Shown here: piece after piece, positions 8,993 to 63,929 of the stretch | How the letters are laid out: each line of letters starts with the position of its first letter | Position numbering within the stretch: position 1 is the stretch's first letter | DNA from: Octopus vulgaris | Taxonomy: Eukaryota | DNA: 64,000 bases | Assembly (NCBI GenBank): GCA_951406725.2 | Contig: OX597831.1 | Coordinates: forward strand, 83,452,001-83,516,000 | Reading direction: 5' to 3' | Program-made: the position numbers and the translations under genes | Notes under the pieces: generated by a model | What the model was told of the DNA's origin: nothing | What the model saw: only the letters and a program-made list of their open reading frames with translations | Database searches by the model: none

Positions 8993-9442
<450 letters not shown>

Positions 9443-9446
<4 letters not shown>

Positions 9447-10228
9447 TCTGTGTTCCGTGTTCGTCCCTTCCTGTATTTCACGTTCATTATATATAAAAAC
9501 ATTCATTCTTATATTATTGCGGCGTTACGTGCACCACCCCCCGTTTGTTTGTCCAATTTTAAACCCTGCACGACTTCTATACACACTGTCTTTCCTACCC
9601 GCCATTGCTTCTTCACCAAACTTTTTGGCGCCCTCCGATTCTTCCCCCCTCTTCCTCCCATCCTCCTCCCCTCTTCCTCCTTAATCCCTTCTTTCTCCTT
9701 TTCTCTTGGTCACTGATTCTGTCCCCTGCCTTCCACCCTCTTTGATTCCCTCTCTCTCTGTCTCTCTTTCTCTCTCTCTCCTGCAACCTGCTGCTTCTTA
9801 ACCATTCTGTTGGCCATCGTATCTCGACCAACATATGTCCCCGCTACCGAAACGGTAATTTTTTCTACGCCAGCTGCTATGTTGTTGTTGTTTCTGTCTC
9901 ATTTGGTCTAAAGTCGTATGACAACCACCGTTATATATATTTTTGTTTATTCATTACTGTTTTCAATTTCGTTTTCGTCTCTTGTATTTACATCCGTCTT
10001 GTGCGTTCACATTCCTGTCTTCTACCAAGAAATCTAATGCTTACAGCTTAGTTTTTTTTCTTGGGGCTGGCCGAGTTGGAGCAAATATCAGAATTGAACA
10101 GCCGAAATTTGCTATGATGATTCGGTGTCTGACTGAAGATTGAAGGCTTCGAATGATTTGTCTGTGTTCCGTGTTCGTCTCTTCCTGTATTTCACGTTCA
10201 TTATATATAAAAACATTCATTCTTATAT
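9443..10228 (+). mobile_element. Element bounded by 72-bp direct repeats (possible Penelope-like partial tandem)
   Basis: 9443-9514 and 10157-10228 are identical except for one base; both ends abut (TA)n. Confidence 0.5.
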
Positions 10229-10341
10229 ATATATATATATATGTATATAAAATATTATTAGAGACAAAACCACTATTTTGCAAAACAAACAAGGAAAGAC
10301 TTAATCAATACATAAAATTTTAATAAATAGTCAAAAAACCG

Positions 10342-10384
10342 CCACTACAATTGTTTCTTGTCTTGATCGACAATCTTCAGGTGG
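10342..10384 (-). ncRNA. Minimal type I hammerhead ribozyme (mirror copy)
   Basis: Exact reverse complement of 10432-10474. Confidence 0.8.
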
Positions 10385-10431
10385 ACTTCCAATAAGTCAG
10401 TTTCAAATTATGAAACTGACTTATTGGAAGT

Positions 10432-10474
10432 CCACCTGAAGATTGTCGATCAAGACAAGAAACAATTGTAGTGG
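10432..10474 (+). ncRNA. Minimal type I hammerhead ribozyme
   Basis: CCAC-CTGAAGA-TTGTC-gatcaa-GACAA-GAAA-CAATTG-TA-GTGG: stem I, CUGANGA core, stem II, GAAA, palindromic stem III, GUA cleavage triplet. Confidence 0.8.
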
Positions 10475-10645
10475 CGGTTTTTTGACTATTTATTAAAATT
10501 TTATGTATTGATTAAGTCTTTCCTTGTTTGTTTTGCAAAATAGTGGTTTTGTCTCTAATAATATTATATAATATTTTACTATAAAATTGGATTTAATCCT
10601 AAATCTGATTTTTTCCCTGTAAATTTGGATTTATTCCCTAATATT

Positions 10646-10696
<51 letters not shown>

Positions 10697-10776
10697 TGCA
10701 TACATATACATACAGGCATATAAATATATACGCGCATGCAGAAACTTATGCAGATTCCTTCCAATTGCTCTTTCAC

Positions 10777-10840
<64 letters not shown>

Positions 10841-11308
10841 CAAAGCGCTATCAGTTTCCTCTCAGTATTTCAAATAACGTCACGATTTATCTGTTCTTCT
10901 CCTTGATAAGAATCCTCTTTTTCAGCGAGAAAATAGTTCTATTGAAAACTTTTCAAGTATTTGCAACCGCGTTACTGGAGCAGTTAATAGATGTAAACAT
11001 GTTGTGGTCGAGCGGACAGTCCATGAAAGGCAATGGCAGCTGACTGAGTAAAAATTCGAAATACTATTTGAAAGATCACCGATTTTCATCTTGAAATTGC
11101 TGCTACATTTACCAACAATAAGAATAAATGCCATGAGGTGGCACAACTTACTGTTGTCCACAGAAGGAGCACAACTGGTGCAGTGAGACATCAACACATC
11201 ATCATAGATTTAAGAGACATTGTTTATAATTTTATCTATTTAGGTTTCTTTCACTCAATTTTATTTGGATCAAAAACATTCCAACCACAGCCATCCCGGA
11301 ATTTGTGT

Positions 11309-11374
<66 letters not shown>

Positions 11375-12249
11375 ATGTGTATGGATAGATAGATAGATAG
11401 ATATATAGATAGATAGATAGATAGATAGATATTGCGTTCCATTAGCCAGCTTGTTAAGACGGTAAAGCTTGGTTTAAGGGAGTTTGGCTGCCGTATTTAC
11501 AAAGAGACTCCTCGGGAAAGTCCAGTGTGGCCGACACTCAAACATTTACATGGTATCTTTTAGCAGCCATTTTAACATCTATTTCTTTTCTCTTCTACTC
11601 TCCTCCACTTTCTTCTCTTTTCAGTTTTTTCTTTTACTTTTCAGGTTCTTCTTCCTCCCCTTGTCCTCCTCCCCACCCCTTCTTCTTCTTCTTCTTCTTC
11701 TTCTTCTTCTTCTTCTTCTTCTTCTTCTTCTTCTAATCCCTCTAATTTTTCCAGGGTTTCTTTATTCCCCCATTATTTTTGTAACTCTTTCTTTCCTCTT
11801 TCTTTTTTATTTCCCTTGTATTTACCTCCAGTTCTTTTAGTTCTTAATTATTTTCACAAATAATTCTCACTTTTATCTCCCAATGCCACTCTCACAACTT
11901 ATCACCGATATATTTTATGTCTTCTTTCCTTTACTATGTTTATTTATTTCATAATTTCAACTGAAAGACTTCTTCTTTTTTTTCTTTTCTTTTTTTTTTT
12001 CTTCAAACTAAGGTGAAATAGTTACTAAGCAACGAATAGTCTTCTCCAAAATTATGTGGGTAACATTTTCTACGTTCTTTGCTTTCTGAAATCAAAGCAT
12101 TCACATTAAAATACGAAATACAAAATTTATCGTTTTTATTTGTATATTCAACAGGAATTTGTTGTCTCCTCGAATACAATTTGTTTTGAGCTGTTCCTTT
12201 CTGCAAAATAGTCAGATCAGAAATGGCTTTCTTCTTCTTCTTCTTCTTC

Positions 12250-15300: not shown

Positions 15301-16031
15301 TGTCAGGTCACTTTCGAGTGCTACTGGTAACATGTAACCCAGTACTACCTGTTGCATGGTCGGGTCGTCGGCAACTAAACCGGCAACCCCACCAAGCTTG
15401 CTTGGTGAGGAGGGTGTTTATTGGACACCCTGCGGGATGAAAAAAAACCCGTCAAAGGGCGGAGGAACTCTTGAGAGTCAACGGCCATCCAATAAATGTA
15501 TCATGCGCGGGGACATAGAAATAATCGGACTGAATACCCGAACGCGCAGTTAGACCATTGGGAGTGAAGGACTCCTAGCCTTTGTTAGAGCATCCTTCAA
15601 GGAGAAGGTAACTCCTCAACTGGGATAACTCCAACATAAAATCTGCGGCTCAGCGGTTACCGATGATGTTGAATTGTTCTTTTTTTCGGATTATGGCTGC
15701 TGTTGCTTAGTGAGGGGGATTGACTCAGTGCACAGCCTTTCCTCACTTTAAAAAAAATCTTCTTGCACAGGCATTGCACGATAACAACATTGATTGATTG
15801 ATTAAATTGATTAACTAATTCATGATTGTTGATGGCACTGTGAGTCTCAACTGAACGGCTAGCTGTAGCCTTATACAACTACAGCCGGCTATTACCAGTA
15901 AAGGTCTTAGTACCCAATTTTGTACAAGACATTGTAGATCTTTAGCTGGGCTAAAAAGTCACATTTGATCACAGCACCAGTAACAGTTAAGCTTCGTGCA
16001 ATGGCCATACTCGATAACGAGAGGACAGCCA
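15301..16031 (+). mobile_element. RTE-type non-autonomous retroelement copy 1, interrupted by an insert of about 190 bp
   Basis: Near-identical to 39271-39825 and 59533-60086; carries the RTE-like AGGAGAAGGTAACTC motif; insert at about 15794-15986. Confidence 0.8.
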
Positions 16032-21505: not shown

Positions 21506-22296
21506 GTTTACTAATATTTTTATAAAGCTAAAACATCCCAGTTAGGCAACTCTTGACTGACTGGGATGCTTTAGCTTTATAAAAATATTAGTTAATACTA
21601 TTTGTTGAGTTTTTCACGTAGGCCACGAGGGCAGAACAAATATGTAAGTAGTTACGCGAAGCAATAATGGGAAATCAACAAACTTCAGGTTTGTTTGAAT
21701 ATGTTTGGGATAGATTTCAAATTATAAAAGCTTTTTCACTGCCGCGAAGAAAAGAAAGAAAAAAGAATGTTCGCCTTCAGTACAAGGTGTACTGATCTTT
21801 TATAAAGCTTTCTACTTAGCTCAAAATCTGACTGTCTTGGTATCTGGCACTGAGGACAACCAACAAGCTAGATATACATCTATTAGTCCAGAGCTGGAAG
21901 AATCCTTAGCACGCCGGACAAAATGCTCAATAGTATTTCGTTCGTCTTTACATTCCACAAATTCACAATGTTCAAATTCCACAATGGCCTATTTTGCCTT
22001 TCATCTTTTTGGGGTCCCAAACATGCTTGCCTTGTAGCAAAATTTTAAACCATTATTTATAGCATTACATTCAATACAAGATTTTAATTTAACCTTTGAG
22101 ATCTAAAGACAGGGCTAAAAAAATAAGCATGCCAACTGCTTAGAATTGGCGCCAGAATTTAAAAACAGAACCCCACATAAACCCGGGATTAAATGCCGAG
22201 ATGAAAAATAATCAAATTCTACGATAGAATTAAGAATTCATATAGACACAGTAGAGACTAGGTAAGGCTTTAATATTGCTCTCTCTCTCTCGCTCG

Positions 22297-29481: not shown

Positions 29482-31382
29482 ATGCTGCAATTTATGAATA
29501 AGTCGTCAAAAAATGCTGAAAAAATGTTCTCGCCAGATTATGTTGCAAACCCAATAACGGAATTTAAATTTGAAGCAGACGAGAGACTTACCTTCGAGGC
29601 GTATTATAGAAGATAGGGACATATCTTCAATAAAGAGTGCAAAGATTGGGATGACGATATGAAAACGCGTCTAACCCTAAGAAAATTGGCAGCAGGAGCA
29701 CATGAGAGTTACAGCAATTGCGTACTCCTGAAAAAACCTTCTGACATAAACTTTAAAAATACAATAGAAATATTGTGTAAAATTTTTAGTGAGAAAAGTT
29801 CAATACACGCTGGAAATGTTTGAATCTAGAAAAGAACAACGATAAGGACTGCATCACATATGCTGGTAGAGTTGACAGAGAATGTGAAGAGTACAAACTG
29901 GATGAGTTAACGCCAGACATGTTCAAGTGTCTGGTAATTACTCAGGGACTAACTGCAAAAAAAGACGCAGAAGTAAGAACAAGAATTCTCGCTAAGCTGG
30001 AACAAATCCAAATTGTAACCTTACAACAACTGTCAGAAGAGTGTGAAAGAATAGTAAATCTAAGGCACGGCACAGAGAAAATTGAATATAAAGATTGATC
30101 GCAAGTGAAACAAGTGCGAAACAGGCAGAAGAGAAATCAAGTGTGTTGTACTAAAATACAGTAGAAACAGGACAAGAATCAGGAAACAAACCCGTATTTT
30201 GTATGTGGAGGTCTACACCAGAGAAAAAATTGCTCTTTAAGAAAGTGCAATGTTTCCGTTGTAGAGAAATGGCATATGAAAAGAGCACTGTAAAACCACG
30301 ATGACAAAACGTTGGAACAAAAAAAAAGAGTAAACAAGATGTCGTCGAAAGAAAATGGTAATGTGAGAAAGGAAAATTGTAAATATGAAAATTGAAAATA
30401 TAAGAGTAAAAATGCAGTTAGACACTGGAAGTGATATTAGCATTGTGAATGAAGAAAGTTGGAAGTATAAAGGTAAGCCGAAATTAAGTAAATCTACAAA
30501 AGTAGCACACAGTGTTACGGGTAAGGCATTGTATTTTGTTGGTGAAATTGTGTGTCATGTGACAGCTCGTGACCAAATGAAAACGGCAAAAGTATATGTG
30601 TTAAAAAATTCAGTAAGTCTCTTCGACACAGAGTGGATGGAACATTTCAAATTGTGGAATACACCCATAAGTGTATTGTCGGGGAATATAGTCGATTCAG
30701 CCGAAGGTTCGAATGCAGTTGAGGGATTAAAACGAAAAATAAAGCTTTTATTTCCAGAGGTTTTCACAGATGAACTGGGCTTCTACACGAAAACGAAGGC
30801 AAAATCTTAGTAAGACAAAGTGCAACACCTGTATTTAAGCCAAAACAGAATGTACCGTATGCGGCGCTAGAACAGGTAAATAAGGAACTTGAAAGACTTG
30901 AAAGCTTAGGAATAATCGAGAAGACGAATCACTCAGATTGGCAGCACCTACGGTCTACGTAAAAAAAGGAAAATAAGTTAAGTGTTTGTGCAAATTTTTC
31001 AACGGGGTTGAATGATTGCTTAATGTCACGTAACTACTCATTGCGGAGTCCTGAGGATGTGTTCGCAAAATTGAATAGAAGGAAATTCTTCAGTTCCATA
31101 TTTAAGACATGAGGAATTATGTACATTATTTACATTATTTACAATTCCTGAAAGAGGATGCCAAATTAAAAATAAAAACATTAAATGTGTAACTATGAAA
31201 TAGAAAAAACTCAAAAGAGGGAGGTGGAGGTGATATAAAAATTATTGCTAATAAAAGAAATAAAATTACACTTCCTTAGAAAATAGAACTTAAAAGGTGA
31301 GACGTTATGGGGATAATAGTAATAATGTACCGCCCCCTTCCACGTGATGAGTGGTATGTGATAGTCATTACAAATACCGGAA
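29133..31382 (+). mobile_element. Internally deleted Gypsy LTR retrotransposon (5' LTR 29133-29308, gag, protease, RT N-terminus, PPT, truncated 3' LTR from 31303)
   Basis: LTR TGTTATGGGGATAATAG...ACA repeated at 31303; gag-like F.F..DE.LTFEAYYRR; protease MQLDTGSDISIVN; RT start PVF.PK.NVPYAALEQV.KELERLE.LGIIEK..SDWAAP; PPT AAAAGGTGAGA 31292-31302. Confidence 0.9.
29310..29321 (+). promoter_or_regulatory. Primer-binding site (tRNA-Ser type)
   Basis: TGGCGACGAGGA 1 nt after the LTR CA end; complementary to a ...UCCUCGUCGCCA tRNA 3' end; tRNA identity is from recall. Confidence 0.75.
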
Positions 31383-31793
31383 AAGAAAATAATAACTCGA
31401 GTGTTTGTCTTAAACAATTACGTGTTCGTAGTTGCTTGCACCATTCCTTTGTTTCTTTCGATGCCCATGCAGTCACGAGTAGATACAAACAACCTCTTGT
31501 TGAACCTCAAATACGCGATGACTGGCGGCAGATCGCCGCTGTGCCTCGACTTGGAATGACAAAAAGCAAAATCGACCGCGACAGGAATTGAACCTTGACC
31601 ATAAAAATCTGGACGTAAAGAAAAAAAAAAATAGAACTACCATTACAAGGAATGTGACACGAACGAATCCAAAGGCCCAGTCGCCGTTAAGATTATTATA
31701 ATTATTTCAGTGGCAGTGTGCACACGAACCACACACACACATATAAACAATTATAAACACACACGCGCGCGCGCACACACGCACGCACACACA

Positions 31794-31838
<45 letters not shown>

Positions 31839-32006
31839 GTTGTGTTATAAACTAGCACCGTTGTCTCCAATGGCAGTTCTATAAATTCACTTGTTCATGT
31901 CTGTGAAGTGCGGAATTTAACCCACCTCCACGGGAAAAGTAAGTATTATTATACTAGCAACCTATCCAAGAGACAATTTGTCCGTAATCTATTTTAAAGT
32001 AAATCC
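31379..32006 (+). repeat. Local duplication, copy 1 (about 630 bp)
   Basis: Near-identical to 33951-34599. Confidence 0.95.
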
Positions 32007-33950: not shown

Positions 33951-34364
33951 GGAAAAGAAAATAATAACTCGAGTGTTTGTCTCAAACAATTACGTGTTCG
34001 TAGTTGCTTGCACCATTCCTTTGTTTCTTTCGATGCCCATGCAGTCACGAGTAGATACAAACAACCTCTTGTTGAACCTCAAATACGCGATGACTGGCGG
34101 CAGATCGCCGCTGTGCCTCGACTTGGAATGACAAAAAGCAAAATCGACCGCGACAGGAATTGAACCTTGACCATAAAAATCTGGACGTAAAGAAAAAAAA
34201 AATAGAACTACCATTACCAGGAATGTGACACGAACGAATCCAAAGGCCCAGTCGCCGTTAAGATTATTATAATTATTTCAGTGGCAGTGTGCACACGAAC
34301 CACACACACACATATAAACAATTATAAACACACACGCGCGCGCGCACACACGCACGCACACACA

Positions 34365-34431
<67 letters not shown>

Positions 34432-34599
34432 GTTGTGTTATAAACTAGCACCGTTGTCTCCAATGGCAGTTCTATAAATTCACTTGTTCATGTCTGTGAA
34501 GTGCGGAATTTAACCCACCTCCACGGGAAAAGTAAGTATTATTATACTAGCAACCTATCCAAGAGACAATTTGTCCGTAATCTATTTTAAAGTAAATCC
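33951..34599 (+). repeat. Local duplication, copy 2
   Basis: Near-identical to 31379-32006 with a longer (CA)n. Confidence 0.95.
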
Positions 34600-39270: not shown

Positions 39271-39825
39271 TGGTGGCTGCCCCCTCGTTATCGAGTATGG
39301 CCATTGCACGAAGCTTAATCAATGTTGTTATCGTGCAATGCCTGTGCAAGAAGATTTTTTTTAAAGTGAGGAAAGGCTGTGCACTGAGTCAATCCCACTC
39401 ACTAAGCAACAGCAGCCATAATCCGAAAAGAAGAACAAGTCAACATCATCAGTAACCACTGAGCCGCAGGTTTTATGTCGGAGTTATCCCAGTTACCTGA
39501 GTTACCTTCTCCTAGAGGGATGCCCTACCAAAGGCTAGGAGTCCTTCACGCCCAGTGGTTTAACTGCGCGATCGGGTATTCAGTCCGATTATTTCTATGT
39601 CCCCGCGCATGATACATCCTTAAGACATTTATTGGATGGCCGTTGACTCTCAAGAGTTCCTCCGCCCTTTGACGGGTTTTGTTTTTCATCCCGCAGAGTG
39701 TCCAATAAACACCTTCCTCACCAAGCAAGCTTGGTGGGGTTGCCGGTTTAGTCGCCGACGACCCGACCATGCAACAGGTTGTACTGGGTTACATGTTACC
39801 AGTAGCACTCGAAAGTGACCTGACA
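39271..39825 (-). mobile_element. RTE-type non-autonomous retroelement copy 2
   Basis: Reverse complement of 59533-60086; (CATA)n on both sides. Confidence 0.85.
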
Positions 39826-45748: not shown

Positions 45749-47720
45749 TGTTGTGGTGAGAGTACGACACTCTCTGGCGAGAATAGATGGGACCACTGCA
45801 TATAAATAGCAGCGGTTTGACGGAGTCGGCAGTTCACCGTTTGGTTTTCGTAGTAGTCGTCAATCGCTCGAGTGTTGTTGTATTTGAGTTCGCTCCATGT
45901 GAGTTGCTGCCTTGTTAATTTGCTGAATTGTTGAATTCTTGTTGTTACTTGAATTTATTGCAGTTTTTATTTGCCTTCCCCGTTTCTGGCCGAGGTTATG
46001 AGGAGCATTGTTGTGGAGGGTGGACAAGTGAAAACGGGAAGTTGTGCTGCGGTAACTGGCAGAAGCCTGTCAGCGTAGCTACTACAGGTCCGGGAGCTAG
46101 AGGTCGGGGACGGGGACTTCAATAAGTGCAGCGCCTTGCTGAGGAAGGAGAGGGACTGTCTAGGGCTGGTGCCTTTCAGGGAAGTTGTTGAGAGTTTGGA
46201 AGGGGAAACTATCATATGTGGAGCGCTGAACATGGCATCAAGGAGGGTAGCGGTGGCGACCGTGGAAGCGGTTGAGGAGTGTTTGAGGGAAGTGGAGGAA
46301 TCAACCACGTTCTGCACCGGAGGACGGAAGTTCGGCGCGGTGGGGGTGCGCTTCGTGAGCGAGGGTGAGGCGGGTAGGTGCTCCACTATGGCCTTGAAGT
46401 CGGTGGAGTGGACACTGCTACCTGCTTGCTGTGGCAAGCGTGCGGCCAGGGTGGGGTGGGTGGAGTGCCCTTTGAAATTGACGAGGCATGGCTTGTGGCC
46501 TACAGAGGAAGATACAGAAGTTTTTAAAATGTTGAAGACGACAGAGGTGAACTGCTAGACGTAATGGGCTAGACGTAATGGTCCATGTAAGCCTGCCAGA
46601 CCTTCATTAGATTGTGAAAGAGCTGGTGTTACCTGACGAGACCAGATTAAGGAGTGTTGTGGAGGGTAGACCGCCAATATGTTTTGCGTGTGGAGGAAGG
46701 GGACACATGAAGGCCAAGTGCCCCCAGAAACACGAGGAGGAAATAATAGAAACAGAAATGCAAAAAGAGAACACAGTTGTAGAGGAGGAGAAAATAGAGA
46801 AACAATTTACGGTGGTGAAAAGAAAAAAGAACTTCGAATCACCCCCTAAAAGCCCGAAGGAGGAAAAAAGAAAAAGAAACGAGGAAGAGAACAAGAAAGA
46901 AAAGAAGAAAAATGGGAACTGAGGAAGCGTTACCTTCAACCAGTAAGGAAGAAGGAGCACGCCAGGAGAATGAAAACGAAAGAGACAGAGAAAATTGTAT
47001 TGGACGAAGAGAGTGTTGAAAGATATCAGAGAAAGATTACCTAGAGGGAGAAATTTAGGAAACCTCGTAGAATAGGAAAAAGGTGTTGAAATGGAAAAGA
47101 GGATAACAAAGATGAAAAATGTGATCCGAGTGAAATTGGCAAACTGAGAAGGTAAGAAGGGCGTGCTGTTGGGGAGGGAAAGAGGGGAGAGATTAGTAGA
47201 ACTGTTTGGGGGGAAAAAAGAGTTTAGATACGACGAGTTGCCCCCTGTTTCGACGATCTTATGCAATATTTGTGTGTTTAAAAAACAAAAAAAGACACAT
47301 GACTGTAAAGTGAACAGTAATTTAAAAGAACAGTGAAATGGAACTGCTTGCATGGGGAGGGGGGGGGCGAGTAAACCATTTCCTCCTCCTTTTTTTTTCA
47401 TAATCATAGTCCATTCGATATGTGTTTTATATGTACCCCAATGTCTTGGTTTGTCTGTCCTTATGGCGTCCCCTCTTTAGAAAGGCGATGTGCCTAAATA
47501 AAAGAAATCAGTTCGTAGTTTGGTCTTCGAAGTCCAGGTACAGTTTACAGTTCGAGTTAATGTGTTGGAAATATTGATTGTTGGTTCGTAAAAGACTGCT
47601 GCTTCGTTGCGTGTTTGTTTCTGCTGCTGTTTCTATTTTACATTGTTATAGCACTGTTACAGTGTATTCTTCATCTAACGTCGACACTATCAACCATATT
47701 GGAGGCGTAAGGCTGTAACA
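45749..47720 (+). mobile_element. Probable Gypsy 5' LTR split by an insertion (45749-45835 + 47509-47720)
   Basis: TGTTGTG start, TATAAATA at 45801-45808, CA end at 47720 followed by PBS-like TGGTGACGGGA at 47723; the left half is assigned by inference. Confidence 0.55.
45836..47508 (+). mobile_element. ORF1-only (HAL1-like) L1/Tx1-type non-autonomous retroelement
   Basis: Decayed ORF with RRM-like GRKFGAVGVRFVSEGEA, then LPDETRLRSVVEGRPPICFACGGRGHMKAKCP (CCHC knuckle) and a K/E-rich tail; no ORF2; ends AATAAAAGAAA; CAGTTC on both sides. Confidence 0.7.
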
Positions 47721-47730
47721 TCTGGTGACG

Positions 47731-48009
47731 GGGATATCTTTTTTTCTTCGCAAATGTAAATAAACCCAATCTGTTTCTTAAAGGAGGGACATATTCATAC
47801 AGCACGGAATGTTTTCACCCCAAATGGAGGTCAGCGATTGGTTAAAATTGCCGAAATGCTCGAAATTAAAGTCGAAATTAAAAGAATTTTCTCAATAAAG
47901 CCAAGAAAAAATGATGTTTTATAAACACATTCTACCAGTATAGGAAGTTTAAAAGTGTTTAGTTAACTAGAAATTGTGTTGAGAACTGCCGTTCAAAAGG
48001 AAAAGATCC
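47731..48009. mobile_element. Partial MITE of the GGATC-TIR family
   Basis: Right end acacattctaccagtata.gaagttt..aactgccgttcaaaaggaaaagatcc resembles 36800-36884; left end degenerate, no TSD. Confidence 0.7.
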
Positions 48010-49285
48010 AAAAACGGTGTAATTATTAAACTTCAGTTGGATACGGGTAGTGATATTTCAATCATAAATGTGGATACATGGAGAAAAATCGGTAAACCGA
48101 GGTTACCTAGAACAGCGAAAATTGCGCGTGGCCTGACGGACGATGAATTACATTTCATGAGCGAAATGTGTACAGACGTTACATTTCGAGGAGAAACACG
48201 TGAAGCAAAAATATTCATTGTGGAGAAAATCGTCTGAGGAACTGAAGAGAAAATTAAAAAAGATGTTTCCTCAAGTACTACCGAAGACTAAGGTCTACGT
48301 AGAAAGACTGAACCCTGCTTTAAAGTAACCGAAAACGTTGTGCCTGTATTTAAATCTAACAGAAAAGCACCGTTCGCAGCGTTTGAAATTGTAATTGAAG
48401 AGTTGGACGGACTGGAAAAGAGTGGAATCATGAGAAAGGTGGATTACTCGGAGTGGGCGGCGGCCACGGGGTGCATTAAAAAGACATAGAATAAGATTAG
48501 GCCGTTTGCCGATTTCTCTTCAGGACTGAACGACTGCTTAAAGACTGTCCACTCCCGACTCAGAGGACATTTTCGAAAAATGGTGGAAAAACTTTCTCCA
48601 AATTGGATCTGTCTGAGGCTTATTTACAGATTAAAGTAAATTACAAAGGCTCAACGTATCTGATAATAAATACACATAGAGGATTGTACAGATATAGTTA
48701 GCTACCTTTTGGATTAAAGGTTGCACCGGCAATATTTCAGCACACCATGGGCGCTATGTTGTCTGATTGTGAATTTGCAATCCCTTATTTTGACGATCTG
48801 TTGATTAAGAGTAATTCACGTGAACAACGTGTAGAGCATATAAAAGCTGCGATCAAGAAAATTAAAGAGTACAGGTTCACTTTGAGTGAAGAAAATGCGA
48901 ATATATTTTGCCTCAAATTAAGTACTTAGGGTAAATAATTGATGGCAGACACAATAAAGAATATGCCTGCTCCGACAGATATACCGACATTACAAGCGTT
49001 TCTTGGTCTGCCAAACTACTACCGAAACTACAATCCTAACTCACACAAATTAAGATCTCCATTAAATGACTTTCTAAAAAAGGAAGTAAAGTGGAATTGG
49101 TCGGTTAAATGCCAAACGCATTTAAAGAAATAAAAAAAAGTTCTAATCGCAGATTTGTCTCTAGCGCATTTCGATCCTGAAATAGACGTTGTTGTAGCGT
49201 CTGATGGTTCGGAGTACGGAATAGGAGCAGTTTTGCTGCACAAGTATAAAGATGGAAGTACGAAACCAGTGATTCATGTTTCACA
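48010..49285 (+). mobile_element. Decayed Gypsy pol (protease, RT, RNase H start)
   Basis: LQLDTGSDISIIN; YSEWAA; FSKLDLSEAYLQI; LPFGLKVAPAIFQ; YFDDLLI; LQAFLGL.NYY; VVASDGSEYGIGAVL. Confidence 0.92.
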
Positions 49286-54955: not shown

Positions 54956-55182
54956 ATAGGTATATAGATGTAAAGATGGATAGATTTTTTTCTGTCTCGC
55001 TTTTTCTCTGTTTCATATGTATTAATTAATGGACATACTAAGTATGTATACCTGCTGGAAATAACAGTCAAAACTCTTATTTAAACTGCCGAAAAAATAA
55101 CACTGATATAAACTACAGCAGTCAACCGTTCGCGGGTAAACGGGTTAAGAAAATCATTCAACATACCTCTATAGCATCCAGC

Positions 55183-55512
55183 AGAGGGCGCGTGGCTTAG
55201 TGGTTAGGGCATTCGGCTCATGATCGTAAGGTTGTGAGTTCGATTCCCGGCGACGCGTTGTGTCCTTGAGCAAGACACTTTATTTCACGTTGCTCCAGTC
55301 CACTCAGCTGGCAAAAATGAGTTGTACTTGTATTTCAAAGGGTCAGCCTTGTCACTCTCTGTGTCACGCTGATTATCCCCGAGAACTACGTTAAGGGTAC
55401 ACGTGTCTGTGGAATGCTCAGCCATTTGCACGTTAATTTCACGAGCAAGCTGTTCCGTTGATCGTATCAGCTGGGACCCTCGTCGTCGTAACCGGCGGAG
55501 TCTTTTTTTTTA
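55183..55512 (+). mobile_element. Full-length tRNA-derived SINE with 12-bp TSD
   Basis: A-box TGGCTTAGTGG, B-box GTTCGATTCC, poly-T end; TSD ATAGCATCCAGC at 55171-55182 and 55513-55524. Confidence 0.93.
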
Positions 55513-55549
55513 ATAGCATCCAGCTATATATCTTCTAGTATTTGAACTC

Positions 55550-55600
55550 ACGTGGACCGGTTTCTGAACTGGCATTATAGCCTTACTTTCCTCAGCACAT
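55550..55600 (-). ncRNA. Type I hammerhead ribozyme motif
   Basis: ATGTG-CTGAGGA-..GGC tataat GCC..-GAAA-CCGG-TC-CACGT: intact core and GUC site; base of stem II imperfect. Confidence 0.65.
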
Positions 55601-55673
55601 ATTACCACGCTGGAAAAATCCCCAAACCCGTCACGTTGAAGTCTGCGATGCACGGATTTGTCATCGTCGTAAC

Positions 55674-55724
55674 ACGTGCCGAGGAAGGTAAGGCTATAAT
55701 GCCAGTCCAGAAACCGGTCCACGT
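55674..55724 (+). ncRNA. Type I hammerhead ribozyme motif (CCGAGGA variant)
   Basis: ACGTG-CCGAGGA-..GGC tataat GCC..-GAAA-CCGG-TC-CACGT. Confidence 0.6.
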
Positions 55725-56042
55725 GAGTCCAAATACTAGAAAATATATAGCTGGATGCTATAGAGGTATGTTGAATGATTTTCTTGAACAGTTTACCCGC
55801 GTACGGTTGACTTCTGTAGTTAATATCGGTGTTATATTTTTTCGGCAGTTTAAATAAGAGTTTTGACTGTTATTTCCGGCAGGGAGACATATTTAGTATG
55901 TCCTTTGATTAATATGAATTTCAATCCTTCAGATATTTAATACTATTTTGGGTTCTGCAATCGCCTATATTATTAATTCTCTTATTATCAATTTACTCAA
56001 ATCTTCGCAAATATTCACTCCTGAATTATTTGCTCCCCATTG

Positions 56043-56342: not shown

Positions 56343-56777
56343 TATTATCCGAAATGTACAGTATTATATATCCATCACAGCTGATCCCACCAATCGGTTT
56401 CGCGCAAGGAATACAATGGAGTGTTAGGTAACAATCCGATTATATGATCTTACAATCATCAGAGTCAGCCGATATGGAAGGGAATATGGTTACTGTTCTC
56501 TATTTGTGGAGGTGATTTCGCACTTCCGGTTTATGGTTGCTGTGAAAAGGGTGGTGAAACGAAAAAGGGCAGGGGATTTTTCGTTTCACCAGCCTTTTCA
56601 CAGTAACTGCAAACCGGATGCGTCAATTCACCTCCGACAATGGAGAACAGTCGCCATATTCCCTTCCTTATCGGCTAACTCTGATGAACGTAAGGTCATA
56701 TAGTTGTATTTCTTGCGTGAAACCGATTGGTAAGATCAGCCATGGTGGGTATGTAATAGTGTACATTTCAGATAATA
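56343..56777. mobile_element. Imperfect palindrome with paired hammerheads
   Basis: Arms pair along their length around the loop agggcagggga; about 70-nt right tail, then (TA)n. Confidence 0.85.
56674..56740 (+). ncRNA. Type I hammerhead ribozyme motif
   Basis: GCTAACT-CTGATGA-ACGTAAG..CTTGCGT-GAAA-CCGATTGG-TA-AGATCAGC; the mirror at 56380-56469 has TG at the cleavage position. Confidence 0.7.
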
Positions 56778-58876: not shown

Positions 58877-58878
<2 letters not shown>

Positions 58879-59016
58879 ACGCTCAGGAAAGGAAAGAAAG
58901 AAGGAGGATTTAAAGTTTCGAGCGGAGCTCTTCGTCAGAAACATAGGAAAAGGAAAGGTCCAAGGAAGGGAAGACGGAGAAAGAAAATCGGCAACGATAC
59001 TCACGTGGTCACATAT
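58877..59016 (-). mobile_element. Short hammerhead-bearing element (same family as 63427-63617)
   Basis: Minus 58942-58908: GTTT-CTGACGA-AGAGctccgCTC-GAAA-CT-TT-AAAT; abuts (TA)n. Confidence 0.75.
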
Positions 59017-59115
59017 TGAAAAAAATGAAAATATATATACCGGAGTAAGCATATAAATGTGAAATAGAGTATTAAAAAATAGTATTTGAATACTGGAGGT
59101 AGAGTAATATGCTTT

Positions 59116-59388
59116 ACAAAGACATCACAAAAGCTGTTACCGAGAGTTTCGCGTTCCCGTTCGTCGGACAGTTTGGGTTGAGAGTGGAACAAAATATGTT
59201 TATATTCATAAAATGTACAGTTACGTTTATAAATACACATTTAAAGATGGTCTTGTTCCATTGGTCGTTTAGTTGAAAGGACCAATTTATATTTATGAAT
59301 AGAGCCATATTTTGTTCCATCCTCCACCAAAACTGTCCGACGAATGGAAACGTGAAATTCTCGGTAACAGCTTTTGTGGTGTCTTTGT
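59116..59388. mobile_element. Imperfect palindrome (arms about 95 bp) with paired hammerhead-like motifs
   Basis: Plus 59333-59370 CTGT-CCGACGA-ATGgaaaCGT-GAAA-TTCTCGG-TA-ACAG; mirror at 59134-59171. Confidence 0.75.
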
Positions 59389-59532: not shown

Positions 59533-60086
59533 TGTCAGGTCACTTTCGAGTGCTACTGGTAACATGTAACCCAGTACAACCTGTTGCATGGTCGGGTCGT
59601 CGGCGACTAAACCGGCAACCCCACCAAGCTTGCTTGGTGAGGAAGGTGTTTATTGGACACTCTGCGGGATGAAAAACAAAACCCGTCAAAGGGCGGAGGA
59701 ACTCTTGAGAGTCAACGGCCATCCAATAAATGTCTTAAGGCTGTATCATGCTCGGGGACATAGAAATAATCGGACTGAATACCCGATCGCGCGGTTAAAC
59801 CATTGGGAGTGAAGGACTCCCAGCCTTTGGTAGGGCATCCTTCTAGGAGAAGGTAACTCGGGAAACTGGAATAACTCCGACATAAAACCTGCAGCTCAGT
59901 GGTTACCGATGATGTTGACTTGTTCTTCTTTTCGGATTATGACTGCTGTTGCTTAGTGAGGGGGATTGACTCAGTGCACAGCCTTTCCTCACTTTAAAAA
60001 AATCTTCTTGCACTGGCATTGCACGATAACAACATTGATTAAGCCTCGTGCAATGGCCATACTCGATAACGAGGGGGCAGCCACCA
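59533..60086 (+). mobile_element. RTE-type non-autonomous retroelement copy 3
   Basis: Near-identical to the other two copies; (TATG)n on both sides. Confidence 0.85.
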
Positions 60087-63375: not shown

Positions 63376-63426
<51 letters not shown>

Positions 63427-63427
<1 letters not shown>

Positions 63428-63617
63428 AATGTGACCGTGTGTGTACCGTTGGCGATTTGTTTTCCTCTGTCTTCCTTTCTCTGGATCTTTCCTTCTCCTA
63501 TGTTTCAGACGAAGAGCTCCGCTCGAAACGTTAAACCCTCTTTCTTTCCTTCTTTTCTGAGGGTCCAATAATACTCGCGTTGTTGTGTTTTTTTGTGCTT
63601 TCTTGTTTGGATTAACT
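63427..63617 (+). mobile_element. Short hammerhead-bearing element between (TA)n tracts
   Basis: 63502-63536 GTTT-CAGACGA-AGAGctccgCTC-GAAA-CG-TT-AAAC; homologous to 58877-59016. Confidence 0.75.
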
Positions 63618-63630
63618 ATATATATATATA

Positions 63631-63929
63631 ATTATTTAACAATTAATTATCAGGTAGATAGCGTGAAAAGACTAAATTCCTTTTTAAATGTCTTGCTTTG
63701 GAAAAATTGCATTGGGTATGATTAGTAAAATTTTTTGGTAGAAATGACTAATGTCCCTCTTAGCGTGTGACATGTATGTGTAATAATGCCCTCTATATAT
63801 AAATTAATATGTTCAATAAGAAAGAATTATTTTCGAAATTTTTCTCCTATGAGGTTTTTCACGCTATCTATCTGATAATTTCTTGTTAAGATTCCTTATT
63901 AAGAAGTTATCCTTAATTGTTAAATAATT
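63631..63929. repeat. Inverted-repeat-bounded element
   Basis: AATTATCAGGTAGATAGCGTGAAAA vs TTTTCACGCTATCTATCTGATAATT; outer AATTATTTAACAATTA vs TAATTGTTAAATAATT. Confidence 0.7.

Follow-up and report, generated by a model that had tools for sequence, protein, structure and literature searches.

What event created the long perfect hairpin that lies within (TA)n at this locus, and is the ribozyme motif that it carries likely to be at work? The window analysed here, a 64-kb stretch (64,000 nucleotides) of Octopus vulgaris contig OX597831.1, was subjected to an exact scan for inverted repeats. The scan identified perfect inverted arms of 155 bp at 10251-10405 and 10411-10565 with 0 mismatches and only a 5-nt loop (10406-10410) between them. 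No other perfect non-microsatellite hairpin in the 64-kb window exceeds 23 bp, the runners-up being 23 and 22 bp long. BLAST lengthens the match between the arms to 10246 and 10570, giving 160 bp at 99.4% identity with a single mismatch at 10250/10566. As a tail-less end of the repeat family maps near 10570 (contig evidence below), the mirror position of the left-arm end, the natural arms are 10246-10405 (minus strand) and 10411-10570 (plus strand) and are identical at 159 of 160 positions. A 16-nt AT palindrome (10560-10575) occupies the border between the right arm and a tail of about 80 nt (10566/10571-10648) that is confined to the right side. The whole unit is flanked by (TA)9TG on the left (10224-10243), which is also the end of the neighbouring repeat, and by (TA)22TG on the right (10649-10694); these unequal flanks may be a target-site duplication of differing length. 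The exact scan thus bears out the earlier note in describing perfect 155-bp arms with a 5-nt loop within (TA)n and an extra tail on the right only. Long perfect inverted repeats with short spacers have a tendency to form cruciforms, so the site may be cruciform-prone, as the earlier note proposed.

A structure of this kind might be a fold-back artefact of sequencing or assembly, or its arms might have been made identical by polishing. No contig bridging the loop was present among the 32 contig pieces listed out of 22,410, and the locus therefore lacks independent confirmation; polishing or a chimeric read would also yield perfect identity. However, the symmetry ends exactly at the natural end of the family and the flanks are asymmetric. 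The same window contains five older fold-backs with diverged arms, and head-to-head joints of the same family occur in independent runs at a depth above 100. We consider an artefact unlikely, with only a very small chance of being correct.

The right arm harbors a type I hammerhead motif at 10432-10474 on the plus strand. Stem I has 4 bp (10432-10435/10471-10474) and is followed by a CUGAAGA core from 10436, a 5-bp stem II that opens with a U-A pair, and GAAA at 10459-10462. An 8-nt perfect palindrome (10462-10469) is predicted to form stem/loop III, the dimer helix, and a GUA triplet places the predicted cut after 10470. A motif scan located its mirror copy at 10342-10384 on the minus strand; these are the only two motifs of the hairpin and they lie on opposite strands, which rules out the pairing of two ribozymes in cis at the locus. 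In the descriptor search, the conserved core CUGANGA, GAAA, NUH and three helices were all present, in agreement with the earlier claim that 10432-10474 retains every core element and would be cut after 10470. The descriptor matched 7 of 20,000 dinucleotide shuffles of arm plus tail, and had 4 matches in the real window versus none in 20 shuffled windows. Rfam gave no match at gathering score anywhere in the window, and none of its 32 weak matches in 9000-11500 is to a hammerhead family. Because the Rfam models miss the motif, we base the ribozyme call on the descriptor and on published motifs, having compared the sequence visually with those tabulated in PMC8557442. Most of the 32 weak matches are to miRNA models, located on TA repeats and the hairpin; all 32 were dismissed as composition effects.

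Folding predictions favor the dimer. The hammerhead fold of the monomer has a probability of 0.018, and single-strand monomer folds are no better than those of shuffled sequences (z -0.08 to 0.58), so that folding energy lends the monomer no support. The minimum-energy structure of two strands is a double hammerhead formed via the palindrome (-22.0 kcal/mol). Within the motif, only one variant reaches a share of at least 10% among the contigs; this common variant, at 10464, preserves the dimer helix as G.U. In an RNA spanning the whole unit, hammerhead pairs have a probability near 0 and the 155-bp duplex wins at -269 kcal/mol. The ribozyme is therefore improbable to work here, and on these models the hammerhead is likely intact but silent at this locus.

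The predicted duplex could also be taken as the mark of a selected host element, be it the precursor of a hairpin RNA or miRNA or a ribozyme that works in cis. Read-through RNA would indeed adopt the 155-bp duplex at -269 kcal/mol, and weak matches to miRNA models lie near the loop. Every Rfam match nevertheless falls far below the gathering score, the hairpin is one copy of an abundant repeat amid other repeats, and the duplex destroys the ribozyme fold. Selection for a host function is thus very improbable.

The repetitive nature of the hairpin became evident from sequencing runs. The stretch 9440-11300, whole or in part, is present in 20 of 24 listed runs from 9 studies, none of them recorded as RNA. 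For four of these runs, all contigs were aligned to 9443-10650, which yielded 2237, 16387, 3414 and 222 aligned contigs with many variant sites; the summed contig depth does not equal copy number. Contigs of each of the four runs, one of them presumed to be RNA but uninformative on expression, cover both arm and tail. The contig numbers together with the many variant sites identify arm and tail as part of an abundant repeat family, which may already be catalogued. In all four runs, loose contig ends at 10559-10570 pass into TA-rich sequence, with 38 contigs having their loose end at 10570 in one run. The family therefore has two 3' ends, one represented by copies that stop at the position of the left-arm end and the other by tailed copies, and the 16-nt palindrome is the end point of the tail-less ones. 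As both kinds coexist, the tail (78-83 nt, plus strand, 10571-10648, with a 13-bp hairpin and a 21-nt imperfect tandem) is the second 3' end of the family and not local sequence.

The contigs also contain head-to-head joints. Among the best 15 of 95 joints, all pass from the left arm or the loop into the right arm; their positions differ, and they share 0-4 letters or carry short inserts. In 12 of these best 15, both 5' ends lie 9-29 nt behind the predicted cut; the 12 clustered joints occupy at least 11 distinct registers and 11 of them come from a single run. Three of the best 15 read through the loop, and one of these, 10410->10480, occurs in three of the four runs. The differing joint positions indicate that junctions are formed anew at each insertion. 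As the joints 10410->10480, 10414->10551 and 10415->10547 traverse the loop in other runs, the loop is probably part of the family sequence and a piece of the left copy. These joints also suggest that the antisense family strand passes the loop and runs on into a 4-nt stretch complementary to the letters that come before it. Both arms carry the same minority variant, a run of 6 T rather than the 7 of many contigs (rows 10332/10477), which is consistent with a single event. This copy deviates from the common family variants at several sites.

Taken together, the anatomy points to an insertion of a Penelope-like element (PLE), a reading to which we assign a probability of roughly 0.8. The hairpin likely consists of two short 5'-truncated copies of a PLE 3' end, an inverted tail-less copy on the left and a direct copy on the right, placed head to head in (TA)n. 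PMC8557442 describes inverted 5'-truncated PLE copies and a tail of 30-40 bp that is often found at one end only, and states that microsatellite targeting masks target-site duplications (TSDs). The locus presents the corresponding features: a type I hammerhead near the 3' end (pLTR), an inverted head-to-head copy with a varying junction, and an optional 3' tail at one end with two family 3' ends, the tail of about 80 nt being twice as long as published. Complex insertions of EN+ PLEs (PMC8557442 fig. 2, PMC3846280) resemble the locus in their head-to-head inverted copies of the 3' end, one-sided tail, junction palindrome, hammerhead in the repeat, and microsatellite target without a clear TSD; the locus differs in having no ORF between the repeats and in its longer tail (about 80 nt, not 30-40 bp). 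It is thus a further instance of a published arrangement, an inverted 5'-truncated copy with a one-sided tail. In PMC4209133, too, PLE hammerheads occur on opposite strands at distances of 100-700 bp and are ascribed to truncated PLEs.

No ORF was found in the insertion, as expected of a truncated copy, and only short frames run through the hammerhead. None of 117 window frames (stop-to-stop, at least 70 aa, low-complexity frames left out) had a PLE-type domain (RT, GIY-YIG) in Pfam, and a metagenome scan with the hammerhead motif gave 0 matches. The one RT match above cut-off over the window lies 38 kb from the hairpin beside protease matches; 48702-48926, 47983-48234 and 30367-30807 hold an RVT_1 fragment (E 5e-11) and weak aspartyl-protease matches (three among the window frames), which we assign to the remains of LTR retroelements. 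Membership in the PLEs therefore rests on anatomy and is very likely.

The parent most likely comes from one of the clades, such as Hydra (or Neptune), that target (TA)n and carry canonical hammerheads. PMC8557442 defines the Hydra clade, which includes Hydra-1_Obim and Penelope-13_HM and nearly all of whose members insert in (TA)n, with canonical hammerheads. Like the locus, the clade has a (TA)n target and a short palindromic stem III, and in 23 of 25 families its type I hammerhead lies about 90-210 nt from the 3' end (159 or 237 at the locus); Penelope-13_HM also bears an inverted 5'-truncated copy. The Hydra pattern of (TA)n insertion with a canonical hammerhead is common to other clades and is thus not diagnostic. 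The motif differs from that of Hydra-1_Obim, the one octopus Hydra family, the defining protein was not found, and a 13-nt piece of the motif had no match in the available supplement of PMC8557442, in which line breaks can hide matches. The U-A opening of stem II, noted earlier as a departure from the usual G-C, is no oddity among (TA)n-targeting PLEs: according to the table of PMC8557442 (25 Hydra-clade families after one duplicate row was dropped), 18 of 25 lack G-C at this place. U follows the CUGANGA core in 15 of the 25, and 11 of these 15 then have U-A and G-C pairs like the locus. The first stem II pair is U.U in 14 families, G-C in 7, G.U in 3 and U.C in 1; U-A itself occurs in none of the 25, which sets the locus apart from the clade.

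The minimal, dimeric hammerheads of metazoan PLEs (PMC4209133, PMC6765202) share with the locus a 4-bp helix I, a palindromic helix III and a predicted dimer. In contrast to those of PMC4209133, the motif here has neither of two features conserved there, a G10.1-C11.1 pair and an unpaired base following position 9. PMC4209133 found no monomer cleavage and low dimer cleavage, and dimeric hammerhead cleavage is reviewed in PMC6765202. The hammerhead would be a passenger of the pLTR, predicted to cleave weakly, as a dimer, in transcripts of the parent, and to be buried in the duplex in RNA read through this copy.

The hairpin might instead be a short non-autonomous element, similar to a MITE or a retrozyme, and be copied as a whole. 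Its loop sequence recurs in other runs (3 of the best 15 joints), the family is very abundant, and PLE-derived non-autonomous hammerhead elements have been described in bioRxiv 10.64898/2026.07.22.740005, which covers retrozymes. Non-LTR retrozymes are, like the locus, short, non-coding, PLE-related and equipped with a type I hammerhead. They are built of head-to-tail tandem monomers, whereas the locus is a head-to-head pair with a tail; its ends are asymmetric, and it has neither tandem monomers nor a fixed TSD. A unit copied as a whole is also difficult to reconcile with at least 11 junction registers among the 12 clustered joints, which indicate a new junction at each insertion. Hallmarks of a MITE or DNA transposon were lacking as well, given the asymmetric tail and the variable junctions, and any TSD is unreadable in (TA)n. 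We regard copying as a unit as improbable.

How a PLE could produce two arms and one tail is suggested by PMC11167929, in which the PLE protein cuts and extends both strands and two internal RT start sites delimit the tail; insertion in vitro did not require the hammerhead. An RT/GIY-YIG protein from a gene elsewhere would cut both strands of the (TA)n target, and each 3'-OH would prime cDNA on the element RNA, from two internal RT start sites. The left flank would have primed one cDNA at the tail-less start site, seen as the top strand of the left arm, and the right flank the other at the tailed start site, seen on the bottom strand as the tail plus the right arm. A tail on one side only would follow from the start of the two cDNAs at different sites. 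Both cDNAs would stop about 65-70 nt upstream of the ribozyme cut, anneal via a 4-nt self-complementary end and be filled in, and annealing with fill-in would yield identical arms and the 5-nt loop. We hold this two-primer route to be somewhat better than an even bet. The route resembles the 'twin priming' of L1; in the literature searched, no statement of twin priming for this arrangement was found.

The same PLE origin could also involve self-priming, in which a single cDNA from the tailed end folds back on itself, copying reaches the AT palindrome at the tail border, and the product is joined to the left flank. Snap-back would give perfect arms and a 5-nt loop, and the stop point falls within the 16-nt palindrome. 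PMC3846280 describes palindromes at head-to-head junctions and proposes self-priming for them. However, joints in other runs follow the strand of the left arm across the loop (in three of four runs for 10410->10480), which would place the extra 5' letters on the tail-less copy, and a tail-less first strand would be unable to template the tail. The objection from the loop joints holds only if these joints are other insertions and not deleted alleles of this locus. Self-priming is rather unlikely, and the two routes are separated without certainty.

The earlier note had called this copy the youngest example, which is true within the window, where the arms of the five other fold-backs are 87-92% identical. 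Its further claim of a very recent event goes beyond the data, since 0 mismatches in 155 bp only bounds arm divergence to below 1.9% (1 in 160 gives below 2.9%). If the calibration of PMC13282606 (distance 0.09 = 25 My) suits the host, the age could be up to about 3-4 My. Arm differences could also be erased by conversion between the arms or by polishing. The suggestion of an active parent likewise goes beyond the data: no parent ORF was found, and the copy differs from the common variants at several sites. Thus the copy is young and its present activity is without evidence. PMC13282606 counts 190 PLE families in Octopus vulgaris, 31 of them with recent insertions.

The surrounding window is microsatellite-rich and of animal type, with 106 tandem-repeat rows and a GC content of 0.33-0.45; a protein search with the frame at 46079-46555 gave no scoring match. 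Two of its five other fold-backs have hammerhead-like motifs. The fold-back at 56343-56777 (arms 87%) carries a hammerhead core at 56681 in its right arm, with a damaged counterpart in the left one; in that at 59116-59388 (arms 88%), each of the two arms bears a decayed motif resembling a hammerhead, near 59335. At 55020-55914, an older fold-back (arms 91-92%) is interrupted in its left arm at about 55183-55512 by an insert with a 12-nt target duplication and a T-run, which we take to be a tRNA-like SINE. Short fold-backs at 21507-21595 and 63636-63889 (39/43 and 31/34 bases matching) have no recognisable hammerhead. An inverted pair 4.4 kb apart (58877-59018 and 63425-63566, 84% identical) adjoins long (TA)n at each copy, and the copy at 58938 (minus strand) satisfies the hammerhead descriptor. 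Immediately left of the hairpin, 9443-10228 is an abundant repeat with 72-bp direct terminal repeats (71/72 identical). It lies between (TA)n tracts, includes half of a hammerhead core (at about 10133), is covered by many contigs in all four runs and looks like a short, pLTR-bounded non-autonomous PLE. Further repeats comprise a direct repeat of about 630 bp (31379-32006 and 33951-34599, 2.6 kb apart, 99-100% identical outside a CA tract), which is a young duplication or an LTR-like pair, and a repeat of about 500 bp in three copies (15304-15795, 39272-39822 and 59536-60085), 92-97% identical and each adjoining (TATG)n.

Taken alone, the locus is of minor significance, being a probably dead, truncated copy of a retroelement with an architecture already described. 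Such copies are prone to mis-annotation as MITEs or miRNA hairpins, and would give long dsRNA if transcribed. The wider interest lies in the pile-up of joints behind the cut site. It is conceivable, though we think it doubtful, that the family junctions record PLE insertion in vivo, by two-end priming in (TA)n from start sites about 80 nt apart on mostly ribozyme-cut templates, which would place joints 9-29 nt behind the cut (12 of the best 15) and a further group of joints at a defined 5' end 65-70 nt upstream. The cut-template part of this proposal is weakened by several observations: nowhere in the arm is the AT content higher than at 10481-10510 (0.90), which also contains a 10-nt palindrome, none of the best 15 of 95 joints lies at the cut itself, and the ribozyme is still covered by many contigs. 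According to PMC8557442, it is unclear what role the PLE hammerhead plays. If the proposal is true, this abundant family would let genome data test that role directly, as junction positions in a family with thousands of short insertions are mappable against the cut site and the long tail clearly separates the two RT start sites.
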